Assembly: GCA_044892505.1 (NCBI GenBank)
Contig: CM097883.1
Location: 216,380,001-216,444,000 of the forward strand
Direction: 5' to 3'
Length of the DNA: 64,000 bases
Source: Schmidtea nova
Taxonomy: Eukaryota
Shown piece by piece: positions 36,296 through 64,000 of the stretch. The notes under the pieces were generated by a model that was not told the DNA's origin, made no database searches, and saw nothing but the letters and a program-made list of their open reading frames with translations. Position numbers and translations under genes: made by a program. Numbering within the stretch: the stretch's first letter is position 1; each line of letters begins with the position of its first letter.

Positions 36296-36299
36296 TTAT

Positions 36300-39138: not shown

Positions 39139-39224
39139 TATTAAAAATATTTTAAATCTAACAACAAAGAGATAATTAATATTTTAATCAATATAAACAA
39201 TAATACTAATAAATAATTACAAAC

Positions 39225-39848: not shown

Positions 39849-39868
39849 ATATATTTACAGTAGTAATC

Positions 39869-40405: not shown

Positions 40406-40408
40406 ACA

Positions 40409-42518: not shown

Positions 42519-42891
42519 TCCCGATATAGTTTCTTTGTACAGTAATAGCCAAACTGGTGGCGAATTACCGTATTTTGTAGGTAAACAGTATGGATCAGGT
42601 TGGTTGAAAACTATTGGTAGATTTGCACTTCCAATACTTAAGCGATTAGGTAGTTTTGGATTCAATACTGCCAAGGATGTTATCATGAAAGATAATAAAA
42701 TATTACCATCATTGAAAACAAATGCTTTGGCCGCAGTTAATAAAGCTATACCTACTGTAACAAAAATGATTCCTTCAATTACAAATATGTTTACAAAAAA
42801 TGAACCTGAACCTGTACCAGTAGGACCAAGACGTAAACGAAGACGTATAAACAAACGAATGAAAGGTCATGGAACTATATTTGAAGAATGA
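42511..42891 (+). CDS. Small virion protein with protease-site-like motifs and an amphipathic helix (pVI-like)
   Basis: QTGG and QYGSG motifs, WLKTIGRFALPILKRLG helix, basic tail PRRKRRR; lies between the minor and major capsid genes. Confidence 0.7.
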   Translation: MSNPDIVSLYSNSQTGGELPYFVGKQYGSGWLKTIGRFALPILKRLGSFGFNTAKDVIMKDNKILPSLKTNALAAVNKAIPTVTKMIPSITNMFTKNEPEPVPVGPRRKRRRINKRMKGHGTIFEE

Positions 42892-44108: not shown

Positions 44109-44158
44109 GCAGAGCTCAAACAGTATAAATAACCAAAGTTATTATTATTATTATAATT

Positions 44159-44535
44159 ATGGAGTAAGTTTTTAATTGAATAATTATTTATTTTTAATTA
44201 GTTCTATTCAGGTATTACAACAAGGTAAAAAACTATTGGGAAACCAATTTCTTGGAGTTTTTCCGTTAGATAAAATTCCTTATTTGAAAATGAATCAAGC
44301 CATCATTGTAAATACTCACACTTCTACTTTGGGCGGTGAACATTGGATTGCGGTTTACGTGAAACCGGATCGAATACATGTATTTGATCCCTTTGGATAT
44401 TATTATCCAAATTTACTTGTTCGAAAATTGCAAACTATTGGTAAACCTATTGTGTATAATAGAATTCGGTATCAACATCCATTAACAATCACTTGTGGAC
44501 AACATTGCCTTGCATGGCTAAAATCTATGTTATAA
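44159..44535 (+). CDS. Adenain-like cysteine protease; exons 44159-44163 and 44202-44535
   Basis: Catalytic H (GEHWIAV), D (FDPFG) and C (TCGQHC). A 38-nt GTAAGT...TTAG intron gives the start MDSIQVL. Confidence 0.9.
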
Positions 44536-44567
44536 ACAATTTAGTTTAATAAATGTTATTGTAAAAA

Positions 44568-44969
44568 ATGACTTGTTATTTTATTGATATGTACGGTTAT
44601 AATGATATTGGAGGAACAATTATTAAGGAATTATGCATTATGAATGTAAATAGTATTTTCACACCCTTGTATTATATATACAGTGATTTATCTTTCTGGC
44701 CTGATCGTATAGAATCGTTTGAAGGACAAGATTATTTTTGCCCAAAATGTATAATGGATGATATTGAAAATAAAGGAGCTATATTCTATGTTACAGATAA
44801 TGAAAAGTTGCAAGTTTTAAAGAAATATTTCCCGAAATTGAGATTAATTAAATATAATTTTAAAGAATTTGAAGATGTTCCAGAAAATATCTCATGTCCA
44901 TATAAAGACCATAGTATGTGTGCATATAAAGGATGCTTGTCTGGTGTAATTGATTATTTAAAACAATAA
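44568..44969 (+). CDS. Maverick small protein, possibly DEDD-exonuclease-like
   Basis: N-terminal IDMYGY...IKELCI and C-terminal CPYKDHSMCA resemble a recurrent Polinton ORF; assignment by eye only. Confidence 0.5.
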   Translation: MTCYFIDMYGYNDIGGTIIKELCIMNVNSIFTPLYYIYSDLSFWPDRIESFEGQDYFCPKCIMDDIENKGAIFYVTDNEKLQVLKKYFPKLRLIKYNFKEFEDVPENISCPYKDHSMCAYKGCLSGVIDYLKQ

Positions 44970-45475
44970 ATGTATTATTCGTGTTTTATTATTATTAATA
45001 TTAATATTATTAATATTTTTATAAACTTGCAGAATTCACATCCAATTTGCAGATTAACATCCATCTAGCTATACTTTTCGATAATTATAAAGAAATTGCA
45101 TGCAGGCACGCATGCAGACACTCAATTATTTCACATATAAATCGACTTGGGTGTATTCACATCTGCATCTACACCTATAAGATATTTCATAAACACTTTA
45201 GTCACGTAGTGTCTTTGTATCGTTGCATCCGACATGCATCGTGCAATATAACAAAGACATGATTCATACTTGGTGAGTGAATTATTAACACACATACTTG
45301 GTGAGAGATTTTTAACATACATACTCAGTGTGCACACATACTTTTTCTACCCTATCTCGCTTGTGATTGGCTCGTGAATAAAGTTTGTAATAAACGTGAT
45401 ATATACTATATGTTTTCATTATTTCGTCACAATTTAAACAATCTTTTAAAAATTTCAAATTATTATTATTAAACA

Positions 45476-46031
45476 ATGAACAACATTTCTCAATCGATTA
45501 AAGAAAATATCCGTAGGAATAGATTTGGTAATTTCTATTTTATTTATTTTATAAATTTTATAACAAATTAATTATAGGAAAAATGAATCTCAACATGAAG
45601 ATTTCAACCAATTTAAATACCGAAAAAGATACTGAAAAAGAGAATGAAAATGGTAAAAATTTTAAAAAATACTAATTTCATTATTGTTATTATTATTATT
45701 ACAGTAACAAATGTACAATTAACAACTCAATACTATGCAGCTAGCAGAAACGAAAGATTAAACGTTGATATCGATGGTAATTGTTTCTTTTATTTATTAT
45801 TATTAAATGATTAATTTAAAGCCGAAGAAACTTCCGAAATTAATATGCCCCTGATTAGGGAAGATCAAAATATGCCCCTGATTAGGGAAGATCAAAATAT
45901 GCCCCTTATTAGGGATGAACCCATGCCCCTTATTAGGGATGAACCCATGCCCCTTATTAGGGAAGAAAGTATGCCCCTTATTAGGGATGTTGCTGCACCA
46001 GAAGATGATCGCTATAATGGTCGGCAGAAAT
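45476..46031 (+). CDS. Multi-exon ORF with MPLIR(E/D) repeats; exons 45476-45527, 45578-45652, 45705-45776, 45822-46031 (3' end unresolved)
   Basis: Three GT-AG introns (50, 52, 45 nt) all in phase 1 keep one frame that matches ORF 45845-46096; probable further donor GTACGT at 46032. Confidence 0.6.
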
Positions 46032-46199
46032 GTACGTTTTTATTTATTTTTTATAAATTATTTATAAATTATTTATTTCAATTTTTTATAAATTAACTTT
46101 TATTGTACAAATTTTATTTATAAGTTCTATTTTATTATTTAATTATAACATCAAAGTTATTAAATAATAAAATAGTAATTATAAATAAATATTATACAA

Positions 46200-46490
46200 T
46201 AAAAATAAACTATGAAAATTTTATTTAAATGATCGATTTTATGACAATGAAACTATGAAAATTTTATTTAAATGATCGATTTTATGACAATGAAACTATG
46301 AAAATTTTATTTAAATGTTCGATTTTATGACAATGAAACTATGAAAATTTTATTTAAATGATCGATTTTATGACAATGAAACTATGAAAATTTTATTATA
46401 ATGATCGATTTTATGACAATGAAAATTTTATTATAATGATCGATTTTATGACTATGAAAATTTTATTAAAAAGATTGATTTTATGACAAT
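46200..46490. repeat. 43-bp tandem repeat (~6 copies) upstream of PolB
   Basis: Unit AAACTATGAAAATTTTATTTAAATGATCGATTTTATGACAATG at 46207, 46250 and onward. Confidence 0.9.
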
Positions 46491-46661
46491 CTTATTTTAT
46501 GAGAAAATATATTTTATGAGAAATGATAAATTATAATATTTTTATGATACATGACATTATTATACATCCGATATTGAATTTATAGTTTAAATTCAATATC
46601 GATTGTATAATAATTATTATATACTTTATAACATTATTTTTTATAATAAAATCTTGATATT

Positions 46662-49600
46662 TTGATAAATTTAGGTAAACTATACAGTTCTTATTGTAAT
46701 AGTACTTTTCATAATGACTGTCATAGTCTTATGGAAAAGTACTATTATTACAAATATAATAGTATTTTTTACCTTATTTGCCCTACTTGCAAAACTTTAC
46801 AAACATGCACATACATCGAATTCTACAATACACATAGAAACCATTTAACACAATTCAATGGTTCTAAAAAGAATTTGTTTAACTCCATTTTTGCTAATAC
46901 TATTAAACAAAATAATGTGGACAGTGTTCCCAAATTATTAAAAAGTAATGTGGACTGCGTTCCCAAACAAGTAATTATTAATGTGGACTCTGTCCCAATC
47001 TCTTGCAATGTGGACTGTGTTCCCAACCAAATAATCAATAATGTGGAATGTGTTCCCAAATTATTAAAAAGAACAAATACAGAAACAGTTTGTGAAACAC
47101 CAAATAAAATAGGTAAATTTGAGGTTATTGATATAAGTGACGATGATGACGATGTGGTTGTTATTTCGTCAGATGAAGAGGAAATAGACCCTATAGTTTT
47201 AAACTGTTACTCTGTTAAGCAAATAGGTTTAGGGTTAATATCTGTTGATTCTGATCTCAATAATTCGCACATCATCGTTAAGATGGATGTTGCACATTTA
47301 AATTTAAATAATCTTTCTGTTCCATCTCTTTTACTAGAAAAATTAACATCGATTATTTCTGCCATGAAATCTGTTAAGATCCAATTTTGTATAAAGGTTG
47401 AAATGATGAAAGACGATGAATACCAGTCTTTTGTCATTTCAAATTCAGCGCGTGTATGGACGACTGATTTCATTGATGAGGGCGTTACACATCTCAACGA
47501 AAAAATTATCCAAATGAACGAGAAGGGTTCAAATTGGAAATTAAATAAAATAGAATATATTAGTTTTGTAATAACGAAATACTCTGAAATTACCAGATTA
47601 AGAGGTAAAAAATTTCTTTCAACACCGAAATCTTTACTGAATAAGGATTGCATTATCAATGTCAATAACACCGACAATCTTTGCTTCCTTTATAGTGTCT
47701 TGTCTGTTAAAAATTATAATCAGGTTGATGATGAAATTCGACATTTACCAACAACTTATAACTTGACATCACTTCGCTTTGATATAAATGATATGCCAAT
47801 GAAGCTAAGTAACATTAGCAGATTTGAATTATCAAACCCCGGTTATGCAATTAATGTATTATCGTATGACGAAAATGCGTTAGTTGACTTGACTAATAAA
47901 AGTGAAGTGATGAAACATCCATTCATCGATATTATCTATAAAAGTAAAGTAGTGGGGGGCACTGTCATAAACCTACTTTTAATTGAAAATAAAAAAGAAT
48001 TTCATTACGCAGGAATATATAACATCGACAAATTTTTAAATTGTAAAACTTCGGCGATAACCCCAGTGAGAATTTATAATAAATGGTGTCCTAGGTGCTT
48101 GCATGGCTTCCGTAATTCAGATACATTCAAGAGACATCGTGGTCTTTGTGATGCCAACCAAATAGGCACAACTTTGTATACACTTCCTAATAATAAATTT
48201 TTACGTTTTAGCGACTGGACGAAGACAGTGACCCCTCCTTTTGTAATTTATGCCGATTTTGAGGCAATTTTACCTCGCGACTCGAAATATTACCAAAAAC
48301 ATTTGCCCATTTCTGCGGGTTTATTACTTATTAATAATTTCACTGGGGTTAAATTATATAAATCCTTCTATGGCCTTGATTGCGTTGCCAAATTCCTGCA
48401 AGAAATTGAAAATATAAGTCGAAAAATTGTAACGCCCTATTATTTCGCAAATAAAAATAAGCAAATAATATTAACCTACGAAGACATGCAACATTTTTCT
48501 TATGCAACACACTGCTACTTGTGTGAAAATATTTTAGTAAATCCTGTTAAAGACCACGATCACTTTACAGGTGCTTACCTAGGAGCAGCATGCAACGAAT
48601 GTAATATAAATAGGCAAATTCGACACACTTTGCCGATAGTTTTTCATAATCTACGGGGATATGATTTACATCATATCCTCAAATTCGGACTTTCTAAATA
48701 CGAATCGTGGAACATTAGCTGTGTTCCTGTCACCAGTGAGAAGTTTCTCAGTCTTTTTGCGAGAATCGGATCACTCACAGTGAAGTTTATCGATTCGTAT
48801 CAATTTGCCAGCGAATCTCTAAATAACTTAGTAAAAACTCTAACATCTTTTCCTCTTACTTCTTCGGAATTTACCGGGACTATTATCACCAGTAAGGGAA
48901 TTTTTCCATATGATGTTGCTACATCTTTATCTGTCTTGAGGTCGATCACTGAATTGCCGCCGATTTGGGAAGGTGTCGAAATTGCTGATTATGAAAAGGC
49001 AAAAGAAATATGGAGAGAAAATTCGTGTACCTCATTATTTGATTATATGATGGTTTACATGAAACTCGACATATTTCTTTTGGCTGATTATTTTCAACAA
49101 TTTCGTGCAAAGAGTATAGCTCATAATAAACTTGAGCCGTTGAATTTTTTGGGTATACCAGGTATGAGCTGGTGTTCTGCATTAATGACTTTGGAATCTC
49201 CTATCGAGCTTTTGCAAGATATGGAGATGTACAACTTTTTTGAGGGTGGAATCAGGGGCGGCCTCACTTTCGTTAATAAACATCATGTTAAATCAGGCCC
49301 AGATACAGAGTTGCTGTATATAGATATTAATAATCTGTATGGCTGGGCTCTTTCACAAAACTTACCGGACGGGGACTTTGTTTGGGTCACGGATGACCAC
49401 TTGCTTCATGACATCTTGTTGGAGTGCACTACGGTTGATTTATGTTCACTTAACTATGGTTATACCATAGAAGTGGATTTAGAGATACCGGCATCTATTC
49501 ACGACTTACTGGATGATTTACCAGTAGCTGCTGAAAAGATGTGTGTGCCAGGTTCGAAGGTGCATAAGTTGCTTTTGACGCACATGCCTAAGAAAAACTA

Positions 49601-50708
49601 TGTGCTTCATTGGCGACTTTTGCAGATGTTTCTGAGGTTAGGTGTTGTAGTGACCAAAATACATCGAGCTATTAAATACCATCAAAGTAGGCTTTTTAAG
49701 AAATACGTTGATACAAATACTGCTTTGAGAGCTTCTTCCACCACGAAACTCGACAAAAATTATTTTAAGTTATTAAATAACAGTCTCTACGGCAAAACCG
49801 TAGAGAATCTGAAAAAACGTATAAATTTAAGACTGTGCAATTCGGCACGTAAATTAATAACATATAGCAGTAGCCCGTATTTTAGGAAATCAACGAAAAT
49901 TGACCATAATCTTATATCAGTGCTTTTGAGGAAGGAGTCTGTGTGTTTAGATAGGCCAAGTTATATAGGACAGACGGTCTTGGACTTGTCTAAACTAAGA
50001 ATGTATGAACTACAATATATAGAGTTAGAGAAATATAGGAAAGAGTTTAATTGTAAGATTAATATTGCAGCAGGAGACACAGACTCCTTTTTTCTTGAAA
50101 TTGTTAATTGTAGGCTTTCTGTTCTTTTGCCCGCTATGGTGAGGGATCAACTTTTAGATACTTCGAACTATGACCCGAGCCATCCCTTATTTTCGCGTAA
50201 TTTGGATTCAGTTATAGGAAAGTTTAAGGACGAAAATAAGGGCTTCAAATATGAAGAGTGGGTTTTTCTTCGCCCTAAATGCTATAGTTTACTTGGCGAC
50301 GAGGAGTGTTTAAAAGCCAAGGGCATATGTTTGGCTACTGCGGGACTTAACCATTCGCATTACCTAGACTGTTACACAACAAGTAAAATATATAAAGTCC
50401 CGCAGTTTCGTATAGTCTCAAAAAATCATCAGGTTTATAGTGTCAAAAATACAAAAACGGCACTCAATTGCAACGACGACAAACGCAATTGGGTGTCGAA
50501 AAACAAAAGTTTTGCATATGGGCACTATAGGGTAGAAAATACTATTATAGGTTATGATGAAACAATTACCCCAGCCGAACCTGATGGATTTGATGATGAG
50601 GAGTTCGATGATGGCGAAACGGCTGAATCGCGCAGACTCCACGAATACCTGGTGAGGATGGAGCAGCAATTGCGTGATCAGCCATCTACATCCACCGGTA
50701 TATATTGA
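46662..50708 (+). CDS. Protein-primed family B DNA polymerase with a terminal-protein-like N-terminal region
   Basis: CFLYSVLS, YADFE, EndoVII-like KDHDHFTG, FHNLRGYD, YIDINNLYG, KLLNNSLYGKT, AGDTDS. N-terminal NVD(S/C)VP repeats. True start uncertain (the ORF-track start is TTG). Confidence 0.96.
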   Translation: MINLGKLYSSYCNSTFHNDCHSLMEKYYYYKYNSIFYLICPTCKTLQTCTYIEFYNTHRNHLTQFNGSKKNLFNSIFANTIKQNNVDSVPKLLKSNVDCVPKQVIINVDSVPISCNVDCVPNQIINNVECVPKLLKRTNTETVCETPNKIGKFEVIDISDDDDDVVVISSDEEEIDPIVLNCYSVKQIGLGLISVDSDLNNSHIIVKMDVAHLNLNNLSVPSLLLEKLTSIISAMKSVKIQFCIKVEMMKDDEYQSFVISNSARVWTTDFIDEGVTHLNEKIIQMNEKGSNWKLNKIEYISFVITKYSEITRLRGKKFLSTPKSLLNKDCIINVNNTDNLCFLYSVLSVKNYNQVDDEIRHLPTTYNLTSLRFDINDMPMKLSNISRFELSNPGYAINVLSYDENALVDLTNKSEVMKHPFIDIIYKSKVVGGTVINLLLIENKKEFHYAGIYNIDKFLNCKTSAITPVRIYNKWCPRCLHGFRNSDTFKRHRGLCDANQIGTTLYTLPNNKFLRFSDWTKTVTPPFVIYADFEAILPRDSKYYQKHLPISAGLLLINNFTGVKLYKSFYGLDCVAKFLQEIENISRKIVTPYYFANKNKQIILTYEDMQHFSYATHCYLCENILVNPVKDHDHFTGAYLGAACNECNINRQIRHTLPIVFHNLRGYDLHHILKFGLSKYESWNISCVPVTSEKFLSLFARIGSLTVKFIDSYQFASESLNNLVKTLTSFPLTSSEFTGTIITSKGIFPYDVATSLSVLRSITELPPIWEGVEIADYEKAKEIWRENSCTSLFDYMMVYMKLDIFLLADYFQQFRAKSIAHNKLEPLNFLGIPGMSWCSALMTLESPIELLQDMEMYNFFEGGIRGGLTFVNKHHVKSGPDTELLYIDINNLYGWALSQNLPDGDFVWVTDDHLLHDILLECTTVDLCSLNYGYTIEVDLEIPASIHDLLDDLPVAAEKMCVPGSKVHKLLLTHMPKKNYVLHWRLLQMFLRLGVVVTKIHRAIKYHQSRLFKKYVDTNTALRASSTTKLDKNYFKLLNNSLYGKTVENLKKRINLRLCNSARKLITYSSSPYFRKSTKIDHNLISVLLRKESVCLDRPSYIGQTVLDLSKLRMYELQYIELEKYRKEFNCKINIAAGDTDSFFLEIVNCRLSVLLPAMVRDQLLDTSNYDPSHPLFSRNLDSVIGKFKDENKGFKYEEWVFLRPKCYSLLGDEECLKAKGICLATAGLNHSHYLDCYTTSKIYKVPQFRIVSKNHQVYSVKNTKTALNCNDDKRNWVSKNKSFAYGHYRVENTIIGYDETITPAEPDGFDDEEFDDGETAESRRLHEYLVRMEQQLRDQPSTSTGIY

Positions 50709-51833
50709 GGTAAATTTATTTATTATTTTATTCATTTTCATTATTATTATTATTATTATTATAGACTATACGCCAATAGGAAAAAGAAGAAGAAAAATAT
50801 TAAGAAGAATATTGATGATTTTTACTATGAACAAAGCTTTATTTGGAATAAATTGAATGGAAATAAATTTTTTAATTTAAAATAATTGTTGTTTTTTCCC
50901 TATTGGGTTATATTTTTTAAATATTTGTTGAATTTTATTTTTATAAGTTTTTATTATTTTTGTTAATATTATATTTTTTCTATGNNNNNNNNNNNNNNNN
51001 NNNNNNNNNNNNNNNNNNNNNNNNNNNNNNNNNNNNNNNNNNNNNNNNNNNNNNNNNNNNNNNNNNNNNNNNNNNNNNNNNNNNNNNNNNNNNNNNNNNN
51101 NNNNNNNNNNNNNNNNNNNNNNNNNNNNNNNNNNNNNNNNNNNNNNNNNNNNNNNNNNNNNNNNNNNNNNNNNNNNNNNNNNNNNNNNNNNNNNNNNNNN
51201 NNNNNNNNNNNNNNNNNNNNNNNNNNNNNNNNNNNNNNNNNNNNNNNNNNNNNNNNNNNNNNNNNNNNNNNNNNNNNNNNNNNNNNNNNNNNNNNNNNNN
51301 NNNNNNNNNNNNNNNNNNNNNNNNNNNNNNNNNNNNNNNNNNNNNNNNNNNNNNNNNNNNNNNNNNNNNNNNNNNNNNNNNNNNNNNNNNNNNNNNNNNN
51401 NNNNNNNNNNNNNNNNNNNNNNNNNNNNNNNNNNNNNNNNNNNNNNNNNNNNNNNNNNNNNNNNNNNNNNNNNNNNNNNNNNNNNNNNNNNNNNNNNNNN
51501 NNNNNNNNNNNNNNNNNNNNNNNNNNNNNNNNNNNNNNNNNNNNNNNNNNNNNNNNNNNNNNNNNNNNNNNNNNNNNNNNNNNNNNNNNNNNNNNNNNNN
51601 NNNNNNNNNNNNNNNNNNNNNNNNNNNNNNNNNNNNNNNNNNNNNNNNNNNNNNNNNNNNNNNNNNNNNNNNNNNNNNNNNNNNNNNNNNNNNNNNNNNN
51701 NNNNNNNNNNNNNNNNNNNNNNNNNNNNNNNNNNNNNNNNNNNNNNNNNNNNNNNNNNNNNNNNNNNNNNNNNNNNNNNNNNNNNNNNNNNNNNNNNNNN
51801 NNNNNNNNNNNNNNNNNNNNNNNNNNNNNNNNN

Positions 51834-52916
51834 AGAAGAACGCGCGTTTCACGCGCGTTCAATGAGTACTGTGATTTGTCTTATAAAACAAGGAAGAAGA
51901 ACGCGCGTTTCACGCGCGTTCAATGAGTACTGTGATTTGTCTTAAACACACACACACACAATTTATCTCTGTACAAAATTATTATTATTAAATATTATAT
52001 TTCATTAGTCTTTGTTTCGTTGCACATGGATTGCATTGTCTTTGTTTCTTTGCACATGGATTGCATTGTCTTTGTTAATATTTATTGATGAGTCATACTG
52101 ATGAGTCATACTGATGAGTCATACTGATGAGTCATACTGATGAGTCATACTGATGAGTCATACTGATGAGTCATACCAATGAGTGATACTGATGAGTCAT
52201 ATTGATGAGTCATACTAATGAGTCATCCCAATGAGTCATACTGATGAGTCATTAAGAAAACCGTACTTACCTTTATATCCTTGTTTTGTACCCTTTGAAG
52301 GTTGAGCACCCACCATAGACCTTGGAAGGTATGACCATTGTGTGCACCCTTCAATTACCTTTTGTTTGATATGTATATTATAAGGATTGTAAAAGGTTGA
52401 AGGTTTTTGACCCCTTGAAGGTTAAGGATCCTCCATACACCTTCGAGGGTATGACCATCTTACTTACCTCCCAATTACCTTTTGTTTGATATGTATATTA
52501 TAAGGATTGTAAAAGGTTGAAGGTTTTTGACCCCTTTGAAGGTTAAGGATCCTCCATACACCCTCGAGGGTATGACCATTGGATAGACCTTTAAAAGACC
52601 TTTCGAATGATACCCTTGTTTGAAGGTCTGACCTTATCGGACCCTTGGGAATTTAAATTTAAAATTTGAATTTGAAATGAGTCATCGATGACGTCATAAA
52701 ATTCAAATTTGAAATGAGTCATCGATGACGTCATCGATGAGTCATCGATGAGTCATGTGATGAGTCATCGATGAGTCATCGATGAGTCATCGATGACGTC
52801 ATTTATGAGTCATCGATGACGTCATTTATGAGTCATCGGGGGGGGTCATGGATGACTCATCGATGACGTCATTTCCTTTGTTCTGCGATGACTCATGGTG
52901 CACACTTCTGTCTACT
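51834..52916 (-). repeat. Right TIR (at least 1083 bp; inner boundary in the N gap)
   Basis: Reverse complement of the left TIR. Confidence 0.95.
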
Positions 52917-53939
52917 TCCATTCGTTTGCGGGTGATATGGTGAAGTTCTCAATTTTGCTATTCTGAAATAGTTTGTCACCTCGTTCAATAACTCACTCAT
53001 AAAATTAGTTCCTTGGTCTGTGAGTATTTGTTTTGGAGTTCCGTATCTGCAACATATTTCTTCCACTAGAATTTTTGCTACGGTTTTTGCTCTTTGGTCT
53101 TGCATGGCAAATGCTTCCGGGAATTTCGTCAGATAATCCGTTATTACCAATATATAAATATTTCCGTTTAAACTTTCTGGTAATGGTCCTATTACGTCCA
53201 TTGCTATAGTTGTCATTGGCTCTGCTGGTATCGGCATTGGTTGTAGCGGGTTCTTCCATTTCTTCCCACTATCCTTTCTGGTTGCGCAAGTTAGACAATT
53301 TTTAATCCATTCCTTTATATCTTCTTCCATTGTTCGCCAATAATATTTTTGTCTCATACGATTCATGGTCTTTTTCTCGGACATATGACCTCCCAATTTC
53401 CCATCATGGTATTGGATCATTATCTCTTTCCTTCTGTTTTCCGGTAAACACATCAATCTCTTTTCCCCGTCTTGTATTAACAACCATCCTTTATTTATTA
53501 TGTAGCGATGTTGATATTTTCCTATATGTTCCTTTAATTCTTTATTATCTTTGAATACCTCCATGTTTCGAGATGTTAGGAACTCTATGATTTGTCCTAA
53601 TTCTTTGTCTTCTTGTTGATCTTTCTTAAGCTCGCTAAAATCTAAATCTTCTGCTATTAATACACAAATTCGTTGTACATCAGGATCGGTTAATTCCGGA
53701 AATGTCAGTCTTGACATACAGTCTGCATTCGCATTTGCTCGTCCTGATTTAAATTTTATGTCCGGTGAGTACTCCTGTAACTGCATTGCCCATCGCATTA
53801 GTCTACTAGATGTTTCCTTGTGCTGTCCTAACCATACAAGCGGTTGGTGATCTGTTGTTATGCAGATGATGTGTCCCCATAATAAATATTTAAAGTGTTT
53901 AATAGCTAATATAATCGCTAATGCTTCCCGTTCTGTCAC
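52917..53939 (-). CDS. Retroelement Pol middle part: RNase H end and integrase N-half
   Basis: TEREALAIILAIKHF, TDHQPL, GRANANADCMSR; HHCC zinc finger; IAMDVIGPL (D1), TDQGTNF (D2); ends YHPQTNG at the TSD. Confidence 0.93.
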
Positions 53940-55960
53940 TGAGTAATTTTCTCATGCTTTTTGAATGTTCGGCTATAATATCCGATTACCCGTTCCTTTC
54001 CTTCGTCGTCGTATTGTCCTAATACGGCTCCTGCTGCATATCCGCTTGCATCTGTTGCAAGTAGGAATGGCTTCTTGAAGTCTGGGTGTACCAATATGGG
54101 TGCGGTTATCAGTTTATCTCTCAATGTTTCAAAAGCTGTTTGTTGTTCATCTCCCCATATGAATGATACATCTTTCTTTACCAGCTCCTGTATAGGCTTT
54201 GCGATTCCGGCGTAATCTTTTATAAACTTTCTATAATATCCACATAATCCGAGGAATTCTTGTATTTGGGTTATTGTTTTTGGTACTGGGCATTCTTTTA
54301 CTTTGTCGATATTTCTAGGATCCGGTTCTTTTCCTTTTGCTGACACTATATGTCCTAAAAATGTAACCTTTTCTTTTGCCCAATCGCATTTTGATGGCTT
54401 GAGTTTTAACTTCCATTGTCTAAGCCTAACGAATACATCTCGAATATCCTGTATGTGTTGTTCAAACGTGCTAAAATAAATTAATAAGTCGTCTATGTAG
54501 ACCATACACTGCTTTATTCCATGGGTGACGAAAGTCATGCATCTCTGAAATGATGCTGGTGCGTTCGTTAATCCAAATGGCATCTTTCGAAATTGATATA
54601 GGTCTCTACCGATGGTAAAGGCAGTTTTCTCTTTATCTTCTTCCTTCATTTTTATTTGCCAATATCCGCTTTTCAGATCTAACGACGTAAAATATGCTGC
54701 TCCCTGTAAGGTTAATAACATTTCATTGATGTCCGGTAATGGGTAGGTATCTCTTTTTGTCACTGTATTCAATCTTCGATAGTCGATGCAGAATCTCTGT
54801 GTTCCGTCTTTTTTCTTTACCATTACCACTGGAAATTGCCAGGGTGAACAACTGGGTTCGATTACTTCTGCATCCAACATTTTCTTCACTTCTGCTTCTG
54901 CTACTGCTTTCTGTGCTTCCGCTAATTTGTACGGCCTTAATGCAATTGGTGTTTCATCTGTTAATGGTATTGTATGTAGTGTGACATCACATGTTCCTAG
55001 ATCTAAATCGGATGCTGCAAATATGTCCTTATACTCCATCAAAAGTTTTTCTAACTGCTTCTTTTGATCCTCATTTAATAATTCACTATCAATATTCCAG
55101 GTTGGTTCTTTATCTTCCTCTGCTCCTTCTATTGGTAGTTCGATATCCATCATTGGGGTTAATTTACCTAATCTTTCGTTTTCGTAGATTATTTTGTCCT
55201 CCTCGTCGAAATTTACCACGTTTATTGGGATTTCTCCATTATCATTTATGTTGACTAATCCTCTTGCCATTGGCAACGCTTTTCTTTTCTCGAATCTCTT
55301 ACTTGGTTCGAAAATCATATCCCCTTGGATTGTCGGGTCTATTTTTACGTAACATATTTTTTCCTTTCTTGCGGGTATTATCATTTGCTTTGAACTTGTC
55401 ACTTTGGCTTCTATTGCGCATATTTGTCCTGTGCGATCCTTTAGTCTCATTGTTCCGAGGTCGATTACAATCTCTTTAAATAGTGCTGGCATCAAATCTG
55501 TTCCGATAATGCAAGGTACGCTTAATGCTGGTATGACAGCTACGTACGTATCGATTTCCGTGTTTAAATGGCGTATTTTTACCCACCATCTTCCTGCTAC
55601 TTCTACAACTTCTTTGCTACATGCAATTACATGGACGTTTGTCCTTTCTATTTCCCGTCTTTGCTCTTGTGGTATCCATTTGATGTCGATGGCGGAAATG
55701 TTTGCTCCATTGTCGATCATTGCTTCGATTTCTCTTCCGTTAATTTCTATTGTCGTGGTTAATACTGGACCTGTGTTTGATGACATTACGGCGATCGTGT
55801 GTGTATCTCCTTGTGGATCTACGCTTCTACATCTTCTCATTTTATAATCTTCTGGTATCATGGGGTATACATTTGTCATTGGCATCATTTGCATTGTGCT
55901 ATTTTTCCTCCTTGTAGTGGTTCTTGATACATTGTTGGTGGAGGTGCGTAACATTTCCAT
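53936..55960 (-). CDS. Retroelement Pol 5' part: aspartic protease, reverse transcriptase and RNase H start; frameshift at ~53947
   Basis: AMIDNGAN, RFCIDYRRLN, LDLKSGYWQI, FGLTNAPASFQ, VYIDD, LATDAS. Adding one A to GAGAAAATTAC restores HEKNYSVTERE and joins the next ORF. Confidence 0.95.
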   Translation of the reverse strand: MEMLRTSTNNVSRTTTRRKNSTMQMMPMTNVYPMIPEDYKMRRCRSVDPQGDTHTIAVMSSNTGPVLTTTIEINGREIEAMIDNGANISAIDIKWIPQEQRREIERTNVHVIACSKEVVEVAGRWWVKIRHLNTEIDTYVAVIPALSVPCIIGTDLMPALFKEIVIDLGTMRLKDRTGQICAIEAKVTSSKQMIIPARKEKICYVKIDPTIQGDMIFEPSKRFEKRKALPMARGLVNINDNGEIPINVVNFDEEDKIIYENERLGKLTPMMDIELPIEGAEEDKEPTWNIDSELLNEDQKKQLEKLLMEYKDIFAASDLDLGTCDVTLHTIPLTDETPIALRPYKLAEAQKAVAEAEVKKMLDAEVIEPSCSPWQFPVVMVKKKDGTQRFCIDYRRLNTVTKRDTYPLPDINEMLLTLQGAAYFTSLDLKSGYWQIKMKEEDKEKTAFTIGRDLYQFRKMPFGLTNAPASFQRCMTFVTHGIKQCMVYIDDLLIYFSTFEQHIQDIRDVFVRLRQWKLKLKPSKCDWAKEKVTFLGHIVSAKGKEPDPRNIDKVKECPVPKTITQIQEFLGLCGYYRKFIKDYAGIAKPIQELVKKDVSFIWGDEQQTAFETLRDKLITAPILVHPDFKKPFLLATDASGYAAGAVLGQYDDEGKERVIGYYSRTFKKHEKITQ

Positions 55961-58900
55961 GCGTCGGCTGGATTCTTTTCGATGTATTGTGGTGCTTGGT
56001 TCTTATACACTTGTCCTCCCTTATAGTCGTCATCGTCATCATCGTCGTCACTCGAATCATTTTGGGTTTTATATCCTTTCATCCTCTCCCATAAACCTTT
56101 TCTTTCTCTCTTGAGCTGTTGTCTTGCTTGTTCGTCATTCATTATCTTTTTAAATTTTCGTCCTACTTCTTCATCTGTTCCCTTCATTTTTGCGAGTATC
56201 TTCAACAATCTCTTTATTCGATGTATGTCCTTTGAGTGTCCGTGCAACACCATCGTTTTCGCAAGGAATGGTAAAAACCCTACTACCATTTTCCAATTCA
56301 CTTTCTTTTCTCTCTTGTAGATGTCAAAACACGCGAGCATTTGCGTTATTATCACTCTGACGATTTGTATTATTAATATAACCCCCAGTATTCCAGCCAT
56401 CATTTGTCCGAATATCAGAAATCTTCCCCACATTGCTTTCATCATATTTTCTGTGGCTTTCTTGAAATGTGCTGGTGACAACAACAGCTCATAATTCGGT
56501 CCTTCTCGATAATTCGTTCCTCCCGTTATCGTTACGATATTTGACAGTAATGCTTCTCTTCTCGCTGGAAATAATATATTCTGCCTTGCTGCTTCTAAAT
56601 CCTTTGGACTATATATTCCGTTGTTTGAGACATCTACGTCGCTGAATTGCCTATCCTTTGACAACTGCATTAATTCGAATTCTCTTGGTGCTATCACTTC
56701 GGATCTTCCTGGGAACATAACCCATTTACCATCTGGTTTCTGATAAAGCGGTCCATACGCATTACTACAGTTGAATGGATTTGGTTCAAACCCTGGTGGA
56801 TTGATGATTCTCGTCACCGGTTGAACGTATCGTACTTTTCCTTTGTAGTCGATTTCTAACTCATTTGTACAGGTTCCAGGTTTCAACTGCGTTGTTGCTG
56901 CTAGCGACGCGTGTGTCTTTTCGCAAATGTATACGTACATTGCTTCTCCAACCACTCTTCCGAAATGTCCTTCTCTCAGTGGTAATAATGGCATCGCGCT
57001 ATCTGGATTCGTAATCGCTACGGCCAACTTCGTCTTTAATATTTCTCGATTCAGTATACAATCATTATTTATCAGATCGTAGTACACTTTTTGTAATGAG
57101 GCTTGTCCTCTATGGAATAGGAAATCCATTTTATTATTCACATACAAGTGTAGTTTGATATCCATTGTGTCGATTTTGGGTTTCGCATTCGGCACTTCTT
57201 GTTTTGACACATATATTCCTGGGTAATTCGTTTCGTATACCGTTGTACTACACTTAAGGGTTGCTTTCCCTTTTATGAACCTCATTCCCACATCCTGATT
57301 TGTGGTTATCAACACTGTTGGTGTGGCTCTCATCTCTATCCGTTTTTCTCTATGATCTGGTTTCAGTTGTCTTTTATTCTCTAAAGCTTCCTTGAGATGC
57401 TTTGCTCTAGCTTTGTCGTCATCGTCTTCTTCCTGGAACGTTTTTCCTTGAATTTCGTCGAACTGTGCTCCTTGTAGCAGTTGTAATTGACATTCGTTCA
57501 CCTTTGGTTTGTATACTAATGTTGACATTCCCGTTTGACACATGCTCCTGTCGATTTTACACATGGATAACGTTTTCATTTCTCCCGTTGTTGGTTCGAA
57601 GAATGCTTCGTAGCTTTTTAGTTCGACTATATACGTATCCATCACCACTAAGTTGGTTGCGGGTACTCCGAATATCGGGTAGGTTTCTCCATGACAATAT
57701 CCTTCTCCTCCCGTAATCCGTCCTGCTACATAGTATGTCTGTTGCAGCATCATTCCTGGCTTTCCTCTTATCTTGATTTTATCTCTTGTTGTTACTTCTC
57801 CATGTTTAAACAGTGCTTCGCAGTCTTCTCCTTGTAACATGATTGGTTCTCTTTCCGTTCCTGGCATGACAATTGCTGAATAATGTCCTCTCCCGCAGTA
57901 GAATGCGAATCTCGTCTTCTGCACTTTACATTCATTCACCATTGTCTTTATGAGTTCTGCTTCTTGATACACGTGGTACCATTGTTCCTTTTTAATCTTT
58001 TGCAACTCTACTGGAGTTGCATCTTTGCATTGCTCCGTACCTCTCAATGAATACTTTTCTCCTAACTTCATTTGGTCGCAATCAAACACTTCGAATGCTG
58101 TTGCGCTATCGGTGCTAATCATCCATATCAACATCATCATTATTATAGAGCTCAAATTCATTGATGACTTCGCGTTTCCTGTTCCTGCTTGTTCTTTTTC
58201 TAACTCTTCTAATATTTTTTCGAATTTCTTTTTCATATTCTTGGCTTGCGTTTTCTTCTGGTTAGTTTTTATAAATGTTTCCCATCCTCCTTTGTTAATG
58301 ACGTATGGTTCTATTTCTCTGGCTATAATTTTTGCGGTATTTTTTATATGTCTCTCTAATGCAGTGGGTTTTGGTCGACCTCTACTCAGTGTCAACAGAT
58401 TGTAGATCGTGTATGCAATGGCTATTACGTATTTATTATCAGTTTCCGCTCCTTCTGTCAATTTCTTTATTAACGTGGTGGTTCCTTGCCAGTCTAGATG
58501 ATTTGACTTCGTCTTTTCTTTTATGAATTCCGGTAAGATGGGTGCGATTGCGCTGTGTAGTGACTTCGCCTTTTCGCTTATTTCAGTTATCCGCCAGTAT
58601 TTTCTCAATTCCGGATCAATTATTGCCAATATTTCCATTATTGTTTTCGATATCCATTCCTCCCCTTGACATATTGGTGTTGTCTCTTTTTCTTTCATCT
58701 CCGCAATTTTATTTAGTTTCCTTAGGCATAATTCCCATTGATCTTGTCTCTTTTCATCTTTATTTCTTATAACTACAGTTGCTGGATCTGTCTTAGGTCT
58801 ACCTCGAGGTCGTCTATCCATTCCTGTACCTGTTTCCACAAACCTTGTTGCCCGTCCGGTTTCTTCCGTGACATCTCTTGGTTCGTTAGCTCTTTCCTCT

Positions 58901-61900
58901 AACCATCTTTCCATTTCTTGTGTTAATTGTATATTTTCGACATTCGCTCCTCTCGTTTCGTCTTCTGTCAAATCGTTTACTTCTTCTATTATTATTTCTT
59001 CTTCGACTTCTGTTTCTCCGGTGTTGGTTACTTGTATTGTCGTAGGTAGTTCTTGTATTCTTTCGAAAATGTTATCGTCTTTTTCCTTTGTTAATTCGGT
59101 TAGCTCTTCTATCATATCGTCGCTATCCGTCAAAATTTCGTCTACGTCGTATGGTTGTGGTGGAGTCATTTCTCTATTCCCTCTGGATGTTGTCTCAGAT
59201 CGTCTTGAACTTGTCCCTGGCGTTAGTACTGATTTCATCGGGCTCGGCGTACTTATACTTCCGTGTGGTTTATGGTTTTCTTCTTTACGTTTCAATGGTT
59301 GCCCCGCTATTGCTTCCACTGTCAGGGTATTCATGAGATCTAGTTGTGCTGGCGTTATTCCAATTTCCAAACTGTTATCTAATGATCGTCCTTGGTGTTG
59401 TAAATGGAATGGTGGTTCGTATCTCAATTTCTTTTTAATATCTCGAATTTTTTCTGCTATTCCAACCCACAATTCCTCCTTATCCTTGTTTGGGTATATT
59501 ATTCTTAAATGTACCTTTTGTGGAATTTCTTGCGAGAATTCTTGATTTCTCCATTTCCTGATTACGTGGTCTAGTTGTTCCGGGCACCACTCGTTAACTC
59601 TTTTATATTCCGCGATTGCTTTTGCTACTTTACGCAAGCATGTTATATCCTCCCCATTTACCACGAAAAAATCTGCGAGACCCTTTATTACTTTTCTCTT
59701 ACCGTGCGCATTAGTTTTTAATATTTCGACAAATTCTTCCGTTTTTTGCTTTTCCCTTTCTAGCCACATAGCCGCGGTTTCTGGTCCATCTAGGTCTATT
59801 GGCGTAGCTTTCCTTGTCACCATGCAAACTCTTCCTATCTCTGGTTCGCAGTCATCTTCAATTCCTCTTTTATATTCTTCTTCATATTCCCCTTCTTTTG
59901 GTTCCCAACATTTTCCTTTCTCGTTCCATTGTTTTTCTACGGGTGTTTGTATTCGTCTGTTGAGATTGAGTTCTTCTAATACGTTTTCCCACTCTGGCCA
60001 ACTTCGCCAATTTCGATAAATTTCTACTATTTGTTGTAATTTACGCACAACTTTTTTCCGTCGTTCCCGTTCTCTTTTCTCGTCTTTAGCAGTTTCTCTG
60101 GGTGTATCGTTCATTCTGCTAACGTGGATGGTTTGGTGATTATCCCATATACCGATTTTGTATAGTCGTCTCTCATCGTGATCCCATAATACATGTTCGT
60201 TGTATTGTATGATTATGTCGTCTTCCCATTCGTCTTCTGGTTCTCTTTGCACTAGTGTCTCGTTAATGACATTTATTAATTCTTTAATGGTGCAATCCGC
60301 TACCACTTCAATTTCTTTGGTGTCTTCATTAGTCAATTCTACTGAAATTTTTAGATCCGTTATTTGCCCTTGTCTAAACATTGTTTTTCCCATTTTTGCG
60401 ATTAATTTGTCGTGTGAGATCTGTGACCATCTCGTGTGGCTTGTGTCACGTATGCACTCAATACATCGTTTCAATTTCTCGTATTCGCTTCTCATTAACT
60501 CTTTTCTATGTTTTTTGACTTGTGGTATGATTTGTTCTATCAGGGAATTTAGATTCTTTCGTAAGACTCGTTCTTTCTCGTATTCTAACCGTGGTTTTAT
60601 TCTCCTTTCGAAGCACGTGTTTGCTTCCCTTGCAACTTCTTGTAGGTTCTCTTCTTCCTTTTCATCACATATTGATAACAGGGTTATTTCTCCTGGCCAT
60701 ATACCTGTTTCTACTAAGTGCGTTCTTTTCTTTACGAGTCTATTCTGCGAATAGATGAATTTGTTTTTATATGAGCTCCCTAGCCTGTTCTCTACCCATC
60801 TGTAGATATCGTCTGTAAATGGAGTTTTAATCCAGATTCTTGGTGTAGATGTATTTATTATTATTGAGATGGTGTAATTGAGGAGTGGTTCCTCTATTAA
60901 TTTCCCTACGTATCGATTCAACATGTCTACTTCCCGGTCTTGTAACCATTCTTTGTAGTTCATTTGTAATAATGCTTTCATGAATTTCCGGTATTGTTTC
61001 TTATCCATGAACTCTTCGTTATATATTACTTCTAGCGAGTTATCTAGTAATTTCTGGATTTCATCTACTTTTATCTGTGTAGGTTCTGAGGTCTTTACTA
61101 CTTTTCTCTCTTTATTTTCGTCTTCGGATTCGTTTAATATGTCTCCTGCTAGGCTACTGATGTCACTATCTTCTTCCTCATCGGAAAACTCTCTGGTGGT
61201 ATTTCTTAACATATTAATATGTGCTATTTGGTTCGTTTTCCCTTGTATATTCTCCGTTGGTTTTGTTTTGTTTTTTCTGATTTCTGGTGTTAGTTCATTT
61301 TTGTCCTCTATTACTTCGACTTTTTCCATTTTCTTTCCCAACTCGTCTATCTCTTTTAAACGTCTTCTTATCATTTTTCCTTCAAATATTCGCCTGATTC
61401 GGGTTTCGTGACGTATTGGTGGTGGAATTTCTTCTGGTTCTATTTCTTTAATAATCATCACGTTTCTTTTTGTTTCTACTACTCCCAAGTTTTCCCATAT
61501 GTCCGTTAATTCCAACTTTACTTTTGGCGCACCTTCTATTTGTAGGAACGCTTCTCTGGGCAGTTTCGTTACTCCTGGGACCATCTGGTTTACTTTGTTG
61601 AATAATATTCCCACTTCTTCTTTTACGTTATACTGGAATCTAAACACGGATTTGTTGGGCATGATTACCATCATTCCTCTTTTCCAAATCTCCTTTCCTT
61701 CTTCCTGGTTTATCTCGGTTTCCACTTCCTTTTTTGTTTCTTTTTCTACTTCTTCATCTTTTTGTACTATCTCTTTTCGACTTTCGTTGTCGGCTGGATT
61801 TGGGTCTATCGAATTTATTTCCGGTGTGGTTTCTTTCTCGTGGTTATCTGTTTGCTTTATTGCTCTCATCATGTTAATTCTTATAGGTTGTCGTTCTCTT

Positions 61901-63669
61901 TCTTTCTGTTTTTGTTCATCCTCTCTTTGTATTCTTGCCCATTCCTGAGCATGTCGTGCTTGACTTTCTCGATTCAATCGTTCGTTTTCGCTTTCTATTT
62001 TTCTCATCATGTTAATTTGCTGTTGATTGATTTGCGGATTTCCTCTCGTCGTATTGTTTATAAGTTCCGTCAACCTTTGAACTTCTTGCATCAAATGTAT
62101 TTCTTTGGTGGTGGTTTTGTTCTGACTATTGTTATTATTGACTTGTTGGTTCCCATAATCTGGTCGGTTTACGGTATTTGTTTGATTTCCGTAATTTGGT
62201 CGGCTCCCATTACTCTGCCAGTTTCCTCGCTGATTACTTTTTTGTCCGCAATTTCTTGAATAGTGACCAGGTCGTCCGCAATTAAAACAGATTATTGTAG
62301 AACATCTGCTTTCCGAGTGTCCTTTAACTCCACATTTTCCGCAATTCAAATTTTGATAGCATTCTTGCTGCCAGTGTCCCAACTTCCCGCATGTTTTACA
62401 TTGTTTTGTTTGTCTTTGAGGGTTGTAATTGTTTTGGTTTTCAAAGTTCTGCACTTTATTTCCTTCATTCCTTCGTTGAGGGGGTGGTCGGTTTAATTGT
62501 TGCGAATTTGGAATGTGATTGTTGAGATTTACCTCTGGTTCGGTTTGTGCTGTGTCCATGGCTAAATAAATTCTGCCCTCACTTCCTATCATATGCAATT
62601 CGAATCTGTTAGCTGTTTCTAACGCTTGATCAATGGTCTTGCATCCTTGGCATCCAACTTGCGCTCTTATGTCGGGTCTTCTTAATCCTCCTATGAAGAT
62701 GGCTGCCATTAACTCCTCGTTTATTGGACCTCCATCCTTGAATACCGATTTTGCTAATTTTTTCAGTTCACTTGCGTATACCGCATTAGATTCATTCATC
62801 TTTTGTTTCCTCATTGAAAATTCTATGAATGCCTCGCTTAGCACTTTATTTATTCCAAATGTTTGTTGGAAAAAATCCTTTATCGCTGTCCAGCTTGTAG
62901 GTGGATTGGTACCATTTTTCGCTTCCAAATATAGGTCCAATGCACTATCTTTCAAATATAACTGAATTCTGCTTACTGTTGTTTCCGCTTTCCACTTGCA
63001 TACTTCTACGAATATGCCAAATTCTTTTAAAAAGGTTTCTAATTTACTCGCATCTCCGTTAAACGGTTCTCCTGAAAATTTATCCTTTATTTCTTCTCTT
63101 GGTTCACCCATTTCAATTCCGCTGTCTTGAGTTATTTTACTTTCGTTTCCTCTTGTTTCTAGTTCGTTGTTATGTTCGTCTTCTGTTTCACTCGAGCTTG
63201 AATCGCTTTCTGTTTCTCTTATTACTTCGTTATCCGATTTTATACTTTCGTTATCACTCTCGTTGATTTCTATCTCTGGTTCTACCTCGTTTTCTACTTC
63301 TTCGATATTATCGTTGTTAGTTTCGTCGATCTCTCCTTCTTGTTCTATCTCGTGTTCTATTTCTTCGATATTATCGTTGTTAGTTTCGTCGCTTTCTATT
63401 TCACTTGTTTGGTTCTCCTTGGGTTCCGCTTGGTTTTCTTTGTTACTTGAGCTGTTGCTTACTATTGACAATTTATCGTTTTCGATAATCGATTTATCTC
63501 TTATTATTCTCCTCGCTTTACTCCCTTGTGGGTTCTTGTTGTTATCTTTGCCGGCTTTCTGCTTTTTTGTTGTTTTTGTTGTTGTACTAATTTTGTCTTT
63601 TTTGTTAATATTGCTGCCGACTTCCTTTTCCGTTGGCTTTACTACGACAATCTTTGCTCCTTTTCTCAA
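55885..63669 (-). CDS. ORF1 polyprotein (2594 aa): Gag, accessory domains and envelope glycoprotein
   Basis: Capsid-like region from MGEP (63111; FNGD...LETFL...LYLKDSALDLY); three CX2CX4HX4C knuckles at 62401-62248; signal-like MNLSSIIMMMLIWMIS then AFEVFDC; Cys-rich ectodomain and TM at ~56425-56330. No ATG at the ORF 5' end. Confidence 0.9.
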   Translation of the reverse strand: MRKGAKIVVVKPTEKEVGSNINKKDKISTTTKTTKKQKAGKDNNKNPQGSKARRIIRDKSIIENDKLSIVSNSSSNKENQAEPKENQTSEIESDETNNDNIEEIEHEIEQEGEIDETNNDNIEEVENEVEPEIEINESDNESIKSDNEVIRETESDSSSSETEDEHNNELETRGNESKITQDSGIEMGEPREEIKDKFSGEPFNGDASKLETFLKEFGIFVEVCKWKAETTVSRIQLYLKDSALDLYLEAKNGTNPPTSWTAIKDFFQQTFGINKVLSEAFIEFSMRKQKMNESNAVYASELKKLAKSVFKDGGPINEELMAAIFIGGLRRPDIRAQVGCQGCKTIDQALETANRFELHMIGSEGRIYLAMDTAQTEPEVNLNNHIPNSQQLNRPPPQRRNEGNKVQNFENQNNYNPQRQTKQCKTCGKLGHWQQECYQNLNCGKCGVKGHSESRCSTIICFNCGRPGHYSRNCGQKSNQRGNWQSNGSRPNYGNQTNTVNRPDYGNQQVNNNNSQNKTTTKEIHLMQEVQRLTELINNTTRGNPQINQQQINMMRKIESENERLNRESQARHAQEWARIQREDEQKQKERERQPIRINMMRAIKQTDNHEKETTPEINSIDPNPADNESRKEIVQKDEEVEKETKKEVETEINQEEGKEIWKRGMMVIMPNKSVFRFQYNVKEEVGILFNKVNQMVPGVTKLPREAFLQIEGAPKVKLELTDIWENLGVVETKRNVMIIKEIEPEEIPPPIRHETRIRRIFEGKMIRRRLKEIDELGKKMEKVEVIEDKNELTPEIRKNKTKPTENIQGKTNQIAHINMLRNTTREFSDEEEDSDISSLAGDILNESEDENKERKVVKTSEPTQIKVDEIQKLLDNSLEVIYNEEFMDKKQYRKFMKALLQMNYKEWLQDREVDMLNRYVGKLIEEPLLNYTISIIINTSTPRIWIKTPFTDDIYRWVENRLGSSYKNKFIYSQNRLVKKRTHLVETGIWPGEITLLSICDEKEEENLQEVAREANTCFERRIKPRLEYEKERVLRKNLNSLIEQIIPQVKKHRKELMRSEYEKLKRCIECIRDTSHTRWSQISHDKLIAKMGKTMFRQGQITDLKISVELTNEDTKEIEVVADCTIKELINVINETLVQREPEDEWEDDIIIQYNEHVLWDHDERRLYKIGIWDNHQTIHVSRMNDTPRETAKDEKRERERRKKVVRKLQQIVEIYRNWRSWPEWENVLEELNLNRRIQTPVEKQWNEKGKCWEPKEGEYEEEYKRGIEDDCEPEIGRVCMVTRKATPIDLDGPETAAMWLEREKQKTEEFVEILKTNAHGKRKVIKGLADFFVVNGEDITCLRKVAKAIAEYKRVNEWCPEQLDHVIRKWRNQEFSQEIPQKVHLRIIYPNKDKEELWVGIAEKIRDIKKKLRYEPPFHLQHQGRSLDNSLEIGITPAQLDLMNTLTVEAIAGQPLKRKEENHKPHGSISTPSPMKSVLTPGTSSRRSETTSRGNREMTPPQPYDVDEILTDSDDMIEELTELTKEKDDNIFERIQELPTTIQVTNTGETEVEEEIIIEEVNDLTEDETRGANVENIQLTQEMERWLEERANEPRDVTEETGRATRFVETGTGMDRRPRGRPKTDPATVVIRNKDEKRQDQWELCLRKLNKIAEMKEKETTPICQGEEWISKTIMEILAIIDPELRKYWRITEISEKAKSLHSAIAPILPEFIKEKTKSNHLDWQGTTTLIKKLTEGAETDNKYVIAIAYTIYNLLTLSRGRPKPTALERHIKNTAKIIAREIEPYVINKGGWETFIKTNQKKTQAKNMKKKFEKILEELEKEQAGTGNAKSSMNLSSIIMMMLIWMISTDSATAFEVFDCDQMKLGEKYSLRGTEQCKDATPVELQKIKKEQWYHVYQEAELIKTMVNECKVQKTRFAFYCGRGHYSAIVMPGTEREPIMLQGEDCEALFKHGEVTTRDKIKIRGKPGMMLQQTYYVAGRITGGEGYCHGETYPIFGVPATNLVVMDTYIVELKSYEAFFEPTTGEMKTLSMCKIDRSMCQTGMSTLVYKPKVNECQLQLLQGAQFDEIQGKTFQEEDDDDKARAKHLKEALENKRQLKPDHREKRIEMRATPTVLITTNQDVGMRFIKGKATLKCSTTVYETNYPGIYVSKQEVPNAKPKIDTMDIKLHLYVNNKMDFLFHRGQASLQKVYYDLINNDCILNREILKTKLAVAITNPDSAMPLLPLREGHFGRVVGEAMYVYICEKTHASLAATTQLKPGTCTNELEIDYKGKVRYVQPVTRIINPPGFEPNPFNCSNAYGPLYQKPDGKWVMFPGRSEVIAPREFELMQLSKDRQFSDVDVSNNGIYSPKDLEAARQNILFPARREALLSNIVTITGGTNYREGPNYELLLSPAHFKKATENMMKAMWGRFLIFGQMMAGILGVILIIQIVRVIITQMLACFDIYKREKKVNWKMVVGFLPFLAKTMVLHGHSKDIHRIKRLLKILAKMKGTDEEVGRKFKKIMNDEQARQQLKRERKGLWERMKGYKTQNDSSDDDDDDDDYKGGQVYKNQAPQYIEKNPADAWKCYAPPPTMYQEPLQGGKIAQCK

Positions 63670-64000
63670 GGGGATTACTTTTGTATTCTCAATTTTCTTG
63701 TCCTATCTCTTATCGTATTCTGATTCTTCTTGCTTGATTGATTGATTTGATTGATTTGTATATTTAAAATACAAAGGTCCTCAACGATACATTATTGTTA
63801 TCGTCGCGCTTTTATTCCCTTTCTTTCGGGATTACTTATTACTGGGTTTTCATTATTTCCCCATTCCCAGATTCTCCTTTATTTTTAGTCTATTTAAATT
63901 ATCTATAGACTGGTCACAATTATCTATTTATGTCGTAATAATTATCTATACTTTATAAATCAATTACTTTTCCCACAGTTGCCCAATTTATTGGTCGCTC

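Follow-up and report, generated by a model that had tools for sequence, protein, structure and literature searches.

A 64,000-nucleotide stretch of the Schmidtea nova genome (GCA_044892505.1, contig CM097883.1, positions 216,380,001 to 216,444,000; below, the window, with positions counted from its first letter) carries on its minus strand a Burro-type Ty3/Gypsy retroelement, in which open reading frame (ORF) 1 encodes four ubiquitin-like domains (Ubls), U1 to U4. We estimate the probability that these are beta-grasp domains at about 0.95 for U2–U4 and about 0.85 for U1. ORF1 (55885..63702, minus strand; 2,605 aa from stop to stop) comprises Gag, cargo, a Bcl-2-like domain and the envelope protein (Env), and the Ubls lie in frame at aa 681–755 (U1, 61438..61677), 941–1013 (U2, 60664..60882), 1115–1196 (U3, 60115..60360) and 1396–1465 (U4, 59308..59517), all on the minus strand. 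An earlier note, made from the window sequence alone, had proposed four integral, non-conjugatable beta-grasp domains at these places, and the profile peaks and the absence of di-Gly described below support this. Both peptides quoted in it are found in ORF1, and its coordinates hold overall, except that U1 begins approximately 6 aa earlier (~61677).

As the single segments gave one weak Pfam match out of four and no match among 1.84 billion representatives, relatives were collected, initially by Env and Bcl-2 queries and afterwards by queries with a unit composed of a helical module and a Ubl. The Ubl half of an alignment of 20 such units from other families, with no window sequence included, served as a profile. 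It matches polyubiquitin, ISG15 (E = 4.7e-6) and NEDD8 in the PDB, while the individual members match PF11976 (5/20) and PF00240 (2/20) below the cut-off. In fixed windows the profile scores 14.5 bits for U4, 10.3 for U3, 7.2 for U2 and 4.6 for U1; none of 500 shuffles reached the score for each of U2, U3 and U4, and 3 of 500 did for U1. Along ORF1, the profile's four highest peaks without mutual overlap fall on U4, U3, U2 and U1, the next peak being at 3.8. Hhalign with own-lineage profiles yields E-values of 7e-5 (U4), 1e-4 (U3), 1.9e-4 (U2) and 0.009 (U1), the scores being 24–26 over U2–U4, 15–17 over U1 and at most 14 in unrelated windows; U4 taken together with the preceding helical module gives 60% (E = 8.6e-5). 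By profile comparison, the segments are hence predicted homologues of ubiquitin-family proteins, transitively via the other-family profile.

U1, the only Ubl in the array without a preceding helical module, is the least conserved and the least certain of the four. It can be aligned over the entire length with the Ubls that come first in families E and G, keeping the equivalents of L43, L50 and G60. Against three of these Ubls, a profile picked after the fact, it scores 17–21.7 bits, with none of 1000 shuffles reaching the score for any of the four U1 versions, and hhalign against them gives 79% (E = 1.7e-5). In subfamily A3 its identity is 73%, compared to 42% and 56% for the flanks. These observations argue against the alternative that U1 does not have a ubiquitin-like fold and the array comprises three Ubls, which we consider improbable; consistent with that alternative are the weak general-profile score (3/500 shuffles; E = 0.3 in hhalign as a single sequence), the lack of a helical partner (356/500 shuffles) and a model of low confidence. 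Among near-identical copies, selected by U2–U4 similarity, the mean identity of U1 is 85% vs 98–99.9% for U2–U4. Within U1 of the copies L002–L030, otherwise 97–99% identical, shared blocks of amino-acid variants are shuffled, which suggests recombination between old alleles.

Among the structure predictions, the model of U2 and U3 gives modest support to the beta-grasp assignment (predicted local distance difference test, pLDDT, 53). In the model of both helical modules and Ubls from H2 to U3, beta-grasp entries are at the top of the Foldseek output, and U2 and U3 each align to SUMO or ubiquitin. The ESM Atlas links U3 and U1 to ubiquitin and Rad60 clusters with scores of 0.81–0.87, which we treat as leads only. 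Several observations weigh against the beta-grasp assignment: the AF2 model built from the family only has pLDDT of 36, the family-only profile found no Ubl in the PDB, U3 alone of the four segments is matched by Pfam (Ubiquitin_4, E = 0.039), and the register of U2 relative to ubiquitin in the earlier note is off by one residue from the family-anchored one.

The earlier note overlooked the helical domain that stands ahead of U2–U4. In the repeat unit, a Ubl comes immediately after a helical module of ~78 aa. A profile of the helical module has peaks over H2 (60883..61110; 15.8, E = 0.012, a weak match), H3 (60361..60600; 16.9) and H4 (59518..59760; 20.4, E = 0.0012, the best match to other families), all on the minus strand, and no peak upstream of U1, where 356 of 500 shuffles reach the score. 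Since the helical peaks precede only U2, U3 and U4, the array consists of the lone U1 and three helix+Ubl units. The module is predicted, for H3 in particular, to be a three-helix bundle, with generic fold matches only.

All seven related elements retrieved by Env or Bcl-2 queries, and not by a Ubl query (B1, B2, C, C2 and P0004–P0006), have the unit once or twice in the interval from the nucleocapsid to the Env signal peptide. The unit is also kept in 3/3 ENA polyproteins having no Bcl-2 profile match. TRAF and RING patterns were sought in seven other families, in a single copy of each, scanned piecewise from the upstream to the downstream flank (the bounds of the long terminal repeats, LTRs, are uncertain for two of the seven, B2 and G), and were found in none of these copies, all of which keep the unit; the lone TRAF match belonged to an adjacent element beyond the LTR. 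Thus, the unit is more constant than TRAF, absent from all seven, or Bcl-2, missing in the three ENA polyproteins. A weak search for the helix+Ubl unit in cellular proteins was negative. The TRAF cluster is replaced in other families (L165, L166, L167, L169, L170, L171) by one 3' accessory ORF of 470–830 aa, with no Pfam match in the four scanned.

The all-versus-all comparison that the earlier note had proposed as a test of internal duplication revealed no detectable similarity between the four Ubls (E = 0.13–0.61), and the tree did not resolve; hence, the expansion to four is old. Subfamilies A2 (~82% identity) and A3 (~62%) retain all four, those of A3 being 63–73% identical. In the comparison of A1 with A2, the ratio of nonsynonymous to synonymous substitution rates (dN/dS) equals 0.18 for U1, 0.12 for U2, 0.07 for U3 and 0.11 for U4, compared to 0.25 and 0.26 for the two linkers upstream and 0.13 for the one that follows U4; the value for H4 is 0.04. 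All four Ubls are under purifying selection. The open frames of A2 (e.g. L161, L185) have exactly 5,140 aa; the Burro-like ORF1 of Dugesia tigrina is of the same length (PMC6431247), which may be a coincidence.

The part of ORF1 from aa 600 to 1500 lacks a GG dipeptide, and none of 25 arrays of the lineage has a di-Gly, in agreement with the earlier claim that no segment ends in it. Lacking the C-terminal di-Gly, the Ubls do not belong to the conjugatable (type I) modifiers. They resemble the integral ubiquitin-like domains known as type II (the Rad60/SUMO-like PF11976, the UBL domains of Ddi1/UBQLN and Rsa4, FERM F0) in the absence of this terminus and in being embedded in larger proteins, although the identity to these is ~5–20%. 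Shuttles of the Rad23/UBQLN type have the Ile44 patch, which is missing in U1–U4. By alignment, ubiquitin position 44 is occupied by Gln in U1, U3 and U4 and by Tyr in U2 (or Ile, the register being uncertain), and by Ile in none of the 20 related units; position 8 is P, S, T and P in U1–U4, respectively, so that the Leu8-Ile44-Val70 patch is not seen. None of the four has Lys48 or Lys63, and an acidic patch at positions 51–55, common to 15 of the 20 related units, has been lost in U1–U4.

These features bear on the suggestion that the Ubls act together with the TRAF RING of the element as adaptors or decoys for the ubiquitin-proteasome system. The residues at position 44 and the lack of Lys48 and Lys63 do not support it; moreover, TRAF belongs to a separate ORF (26910..28289), and since it is missing in all seven families keeping the unit, the coupling to TRAF is not supported either. 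In a broader form, the Ubls would be decoys or adaptors for host ubiquitin-linked signalling, with proteasome receptors, deubiquitinating enzymes (DUBs) or E2/E3 enzymes as targets, and, along with Bcl-2, ankyrin and TRAF, would be part of a kit directed against apoptosis and immunity. The element does have TRAF, ankyrin and Bcl-2-like cargo, the biggest Ubl array sits in the one TRAF-bearing lineage examined, interference with apoptosis and ubiquitination has been proposed for such elements (PMC6431247), and the U1 polymorphism, in copies selected as above, could reflect a host conflict. Still, the segments have neither the Ile44 patch nor Lys48/63 or di-Gly, the unit persists without TRAF (7/7) and without Bcl-2 (3/3), and dN/dS of U1 is 0.18–0.24 and not above 1. 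We regard this explanation as rather unlikely.

Tentatively, we favour the Ubls being non-conjugatable docking modules that serve the element's own life cycle, and not ubiquitin mimics, probably released by the protease. Four recurring motifs, I/V-N/C/A-M/V/A-hydrophobic, are found at aa 563, 609, 829 and 1292 of ORF1 (starts 62016, 61878, 61218 and 59829, span 59818..62016, minus strand). They are placed at domain borders and are conserved in A2 and A3 within otherwise poorly conserved linkers, and similar words occur at the protease start and end, at the RNase H/integrase junction and at the integrase end. Judging from this distribution, they are putative protease sites, and they resemble those of retroviral proteases. 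In the ENA polyproteins P0004 and P0005, as read from the sequence, there are three protease-like segments, two before the reverse transcriptase (RT) and one past the integrase.

If the Ubls are docking modules, the cargo region between Gag and Env would be cytosolic and would connect Gag, while synthesis is under way, with the Env precursor inserted in the membrane. The element protease would then cut it into U1, H2-U2-H3-U3 and a third product consisting of H4, U4, an RPRGRPK motif (58792..58815, minus strand), which we take to be AT-hook-like, and the Bcl-2-like domain. The third product would end in the hydrophobic Env signal segment, a possible C-terminal membrane anchor. Via surfaces other than Ile44, the three products would each engage a partner from the host or from the element, most plausibly aiding particle assembly or trafficking. 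The extra copies arose long ago and have since diverged. A bolder version, which we hold to be rather unlikely, is that the helix+Ubl unit constitutes a core protein, so far unrecognised, of the Gag-Env-Pol enveloped retroelements, surpassing Bcl-2 and TRAF in conservation. It would be a cytosolic, at first membrane-tethered, adaptor that replaces matrix and late-domain functions via a non-Ile44 surface and that has here expanded into four diverged, separately released modules. Such a unit may account for the coupling of capsid assembly to membranes in a single Gag-Env-Pol polyprotein. Given that the Ubl is half of a unit independent of TRAF and Bcl-2, the focus moves from a ubiquitin decoy to a small, expressible module.

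Three further explanations concern the partner of the Ubl or the need for one. The helical module could be a degenerate TFIIS-N domain (TND/IBD-like), so that the released pieces, together with the AT-hook, would tether the integration or transcription machinery in the nucleus, with the Ubl as an accessory surface. Compared with nine host PF08711 domains, the helical profile has an hhalign score of 19.9 (E = 0.0026) in a plausible register, the controls reaching at most 14.2 in 60 column shuffles and 13.2 when reversed, and words similar to the AT-hook-like motif occur in several families (C, E and G). On the other hand, the hhalign probability is 11%, the score with single host domains is reached by 1–122 of 500 shuffles, PF08711 is not among the matches listed (25 families) for the 20 units, the module is modelled as a three-helix bundle, and the AT-hook piece would be membrane-anchored. 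We find this explanation doubtful. A tandem array of at least 25 PF08711 (TFIIS-N/Med26) matches spaced by ~1.2 kb is located at G000:C1:216.19–216.25 Mb.

It is slightly less probable still that the unit is a late-domain substitute recruiting the endosomal sorting machinery ESCRT for budding, with the Ubl as a fused ubiquitin and the helical bundle as an MIT-like domain. As in the case of ubiquitin fused to retroviral Gag as a late-domain substitute (PMC2958808), a ubiquitin fold stands beside Gag in an enveloped retroelement, but the rescue described there requires L8 and I44, which are not conserved in U1–U4. Finally, the Ubls could have no partners and be stable folding or spacer units that keep so large a polyprotein in solution, with its cleavage sites accessible. 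No surface common to the four is detectable and the ancestral acidic patch has been lost, as would be expected in this case; however, surface positions are conserved in the lineage as well (dN/dS of 0.01–0.04 within A1 for U2–U4, in copies selected by similarity there), and in other families a specific acidic patch is retained and the helical partner is obligatory. Of all the alternatives, we give the least credence to this one.

Burro elements are abundant in planarian genomes. For the planarian Burro/GYPSM1 elements, an env that lies between gag and pol in the same frame has been described, and upstream of BCL-2 a motif termed "Ubi2/SUMO-like (PF11976)" (PMC6431247); the earlier note missed this published description of a Ubl. 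One Ubl at this position is already in print, and what is new is the four Ubls and the helical partner domain; the surprise is limited, as the presence of a Ubl had been published. A literature search, with the primary Burro papers, figures and supplements outside its reach, yielded no description of four Ubls or of the helical partner. Compared by description with the accessible text of PMC6431247, the element is similar to Burro/GYPSM1 in the size of ~30 kb, multi-kb LTRs, a polyprotein of at least ~5,000 aa, Gag with three CCHC knuckles, a Ubi2/SUMO-like domain before BCL-2, env in frame between BCL-2 and the protease, ankyrin repeats and MATH/TRAF cargo. It differs in having four Ubls instead of the one motif named in that text, three of them with a helical module that the text does not mention, and in the position of TRAF, which is here in a downstream accessory ORF and not within ORF1 or upstream; also, unlike in Burro/GYPSM1, BIR had no match in the 13 window proteins scanned. 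One Burro cargo, B-IAP, reportedly protects stem cells (PMC13465017). The order Gag-Env-Pol, the Env of the glycoprotein B (gB) type and many intact copies are shared with the GAG-ENV-POL errantiviruses of the herpes simplex virus (HSV)/gB type from Platyhelminthes, Nematoda and Bryozoa (PMC13524379). The words "ubiquitin", "Bcl" and "Burro" have no occurrences in the main text of that paper, and hence the Gag-Env cargo is not discussed there.

The element is young, multi-copy and Burro-type, with the Gypsy order of protease, RT, RNase H and integrase, a length of ~30 kb (a span of ~47.6 kb minus a 17.8-kb Maverick) with long LTRs, env in frame, and Ubl, BCL-2, ankyrin and MATH/TRAF cargo. The U2–U4 region has 81 scored genome matches with 96–100% identity, of which 20 lie within open frames of 5,649–5,736 aa. 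The frame of ORF1 in the window copy is broken ahead of the protease, whereas other copies have a single ORF of ~5,685 aa; the env-pol junction is in frame in all three other copies checked. On the minus strand, the Gag capsid region and CCHC zinc knuckles (62250..63090; PF03732, E = 1.8e-4; PF00098, E = 2.9e-7) are followed by the array, the Bcl-2-like domain (58273..58710), a hydrophobic segment that is the likely Env signal peptide (58093..58149; hydropathy peak 1.45 at aa 1852) and an Env of the gB/chuvirus fusion glycoprotein type (56314..58092; PF24664, E = 5.7e-71). The Bcl-2-like domain of the window copy has no direct match in Pfam; it matches a profile of eight other families' Bcl-2-like regions (E = 2e-9), and these regions match PF00452.

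The protease, RT, RNase H and the start of the integrase (52893..56002, minus strand) are in two frames in the window copy. The integrase is split by an insertion (35137..52916), a complete Maverick/Polinton-like element with inverted repeats of ~1.08 kb, 100% complementary, and a 6-bp target-site duplication TCCATT; further Maverick-like ends are found near 20198 and in L032. The region 28861..35220 (minus strand) contains the remaining integrase, ankyrin repeats and, past these, several hydrophobic segments and Cys-containing FN3-like repeats (Pfam Fn3, E = 0.049), perhaps a second surface protein. The accessory ORF on the minus strand comprises a RING, TRAF zinc fingers and MATH. The 3' LTR extends at least over 21738..24886 (minus strand), its partner lying 2–5 kb past the window end, and the two are 99.8% identical over 3,149 nt. 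An 826-nt LTR-flanking segment (L031:8181–9006) matches window positions 20378–21203 in the reverse orientation with 99.5% identity, which points to an inversion or insertion at one of the LTRs. A host exon of the DDB1/RSE1/CPSF1-type beta-propeller adjoins the element at 14223–16721 (minus strand).

Ubiquitin is also found in a different, high-copy BEL/Pao element, where a near-canonical copy (PF00240, 98 bits) with an intact LRLRGG stands in frame directly before Gag and is preceded by captured host pieces including Hsp70. This arrangement was read in eight loci (L055, L058, L061–L063, L066, L069 and L076; e.g. L076:4729–9999, plus strand). A literature search of limited extent found no description of such a fusion. 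Host DUBs would be able to cut out Gag at this ubiquitin. Of the 150 scored ubiquitin matches, most are in long frames, and most may be of this ubiquitin-Gag type.
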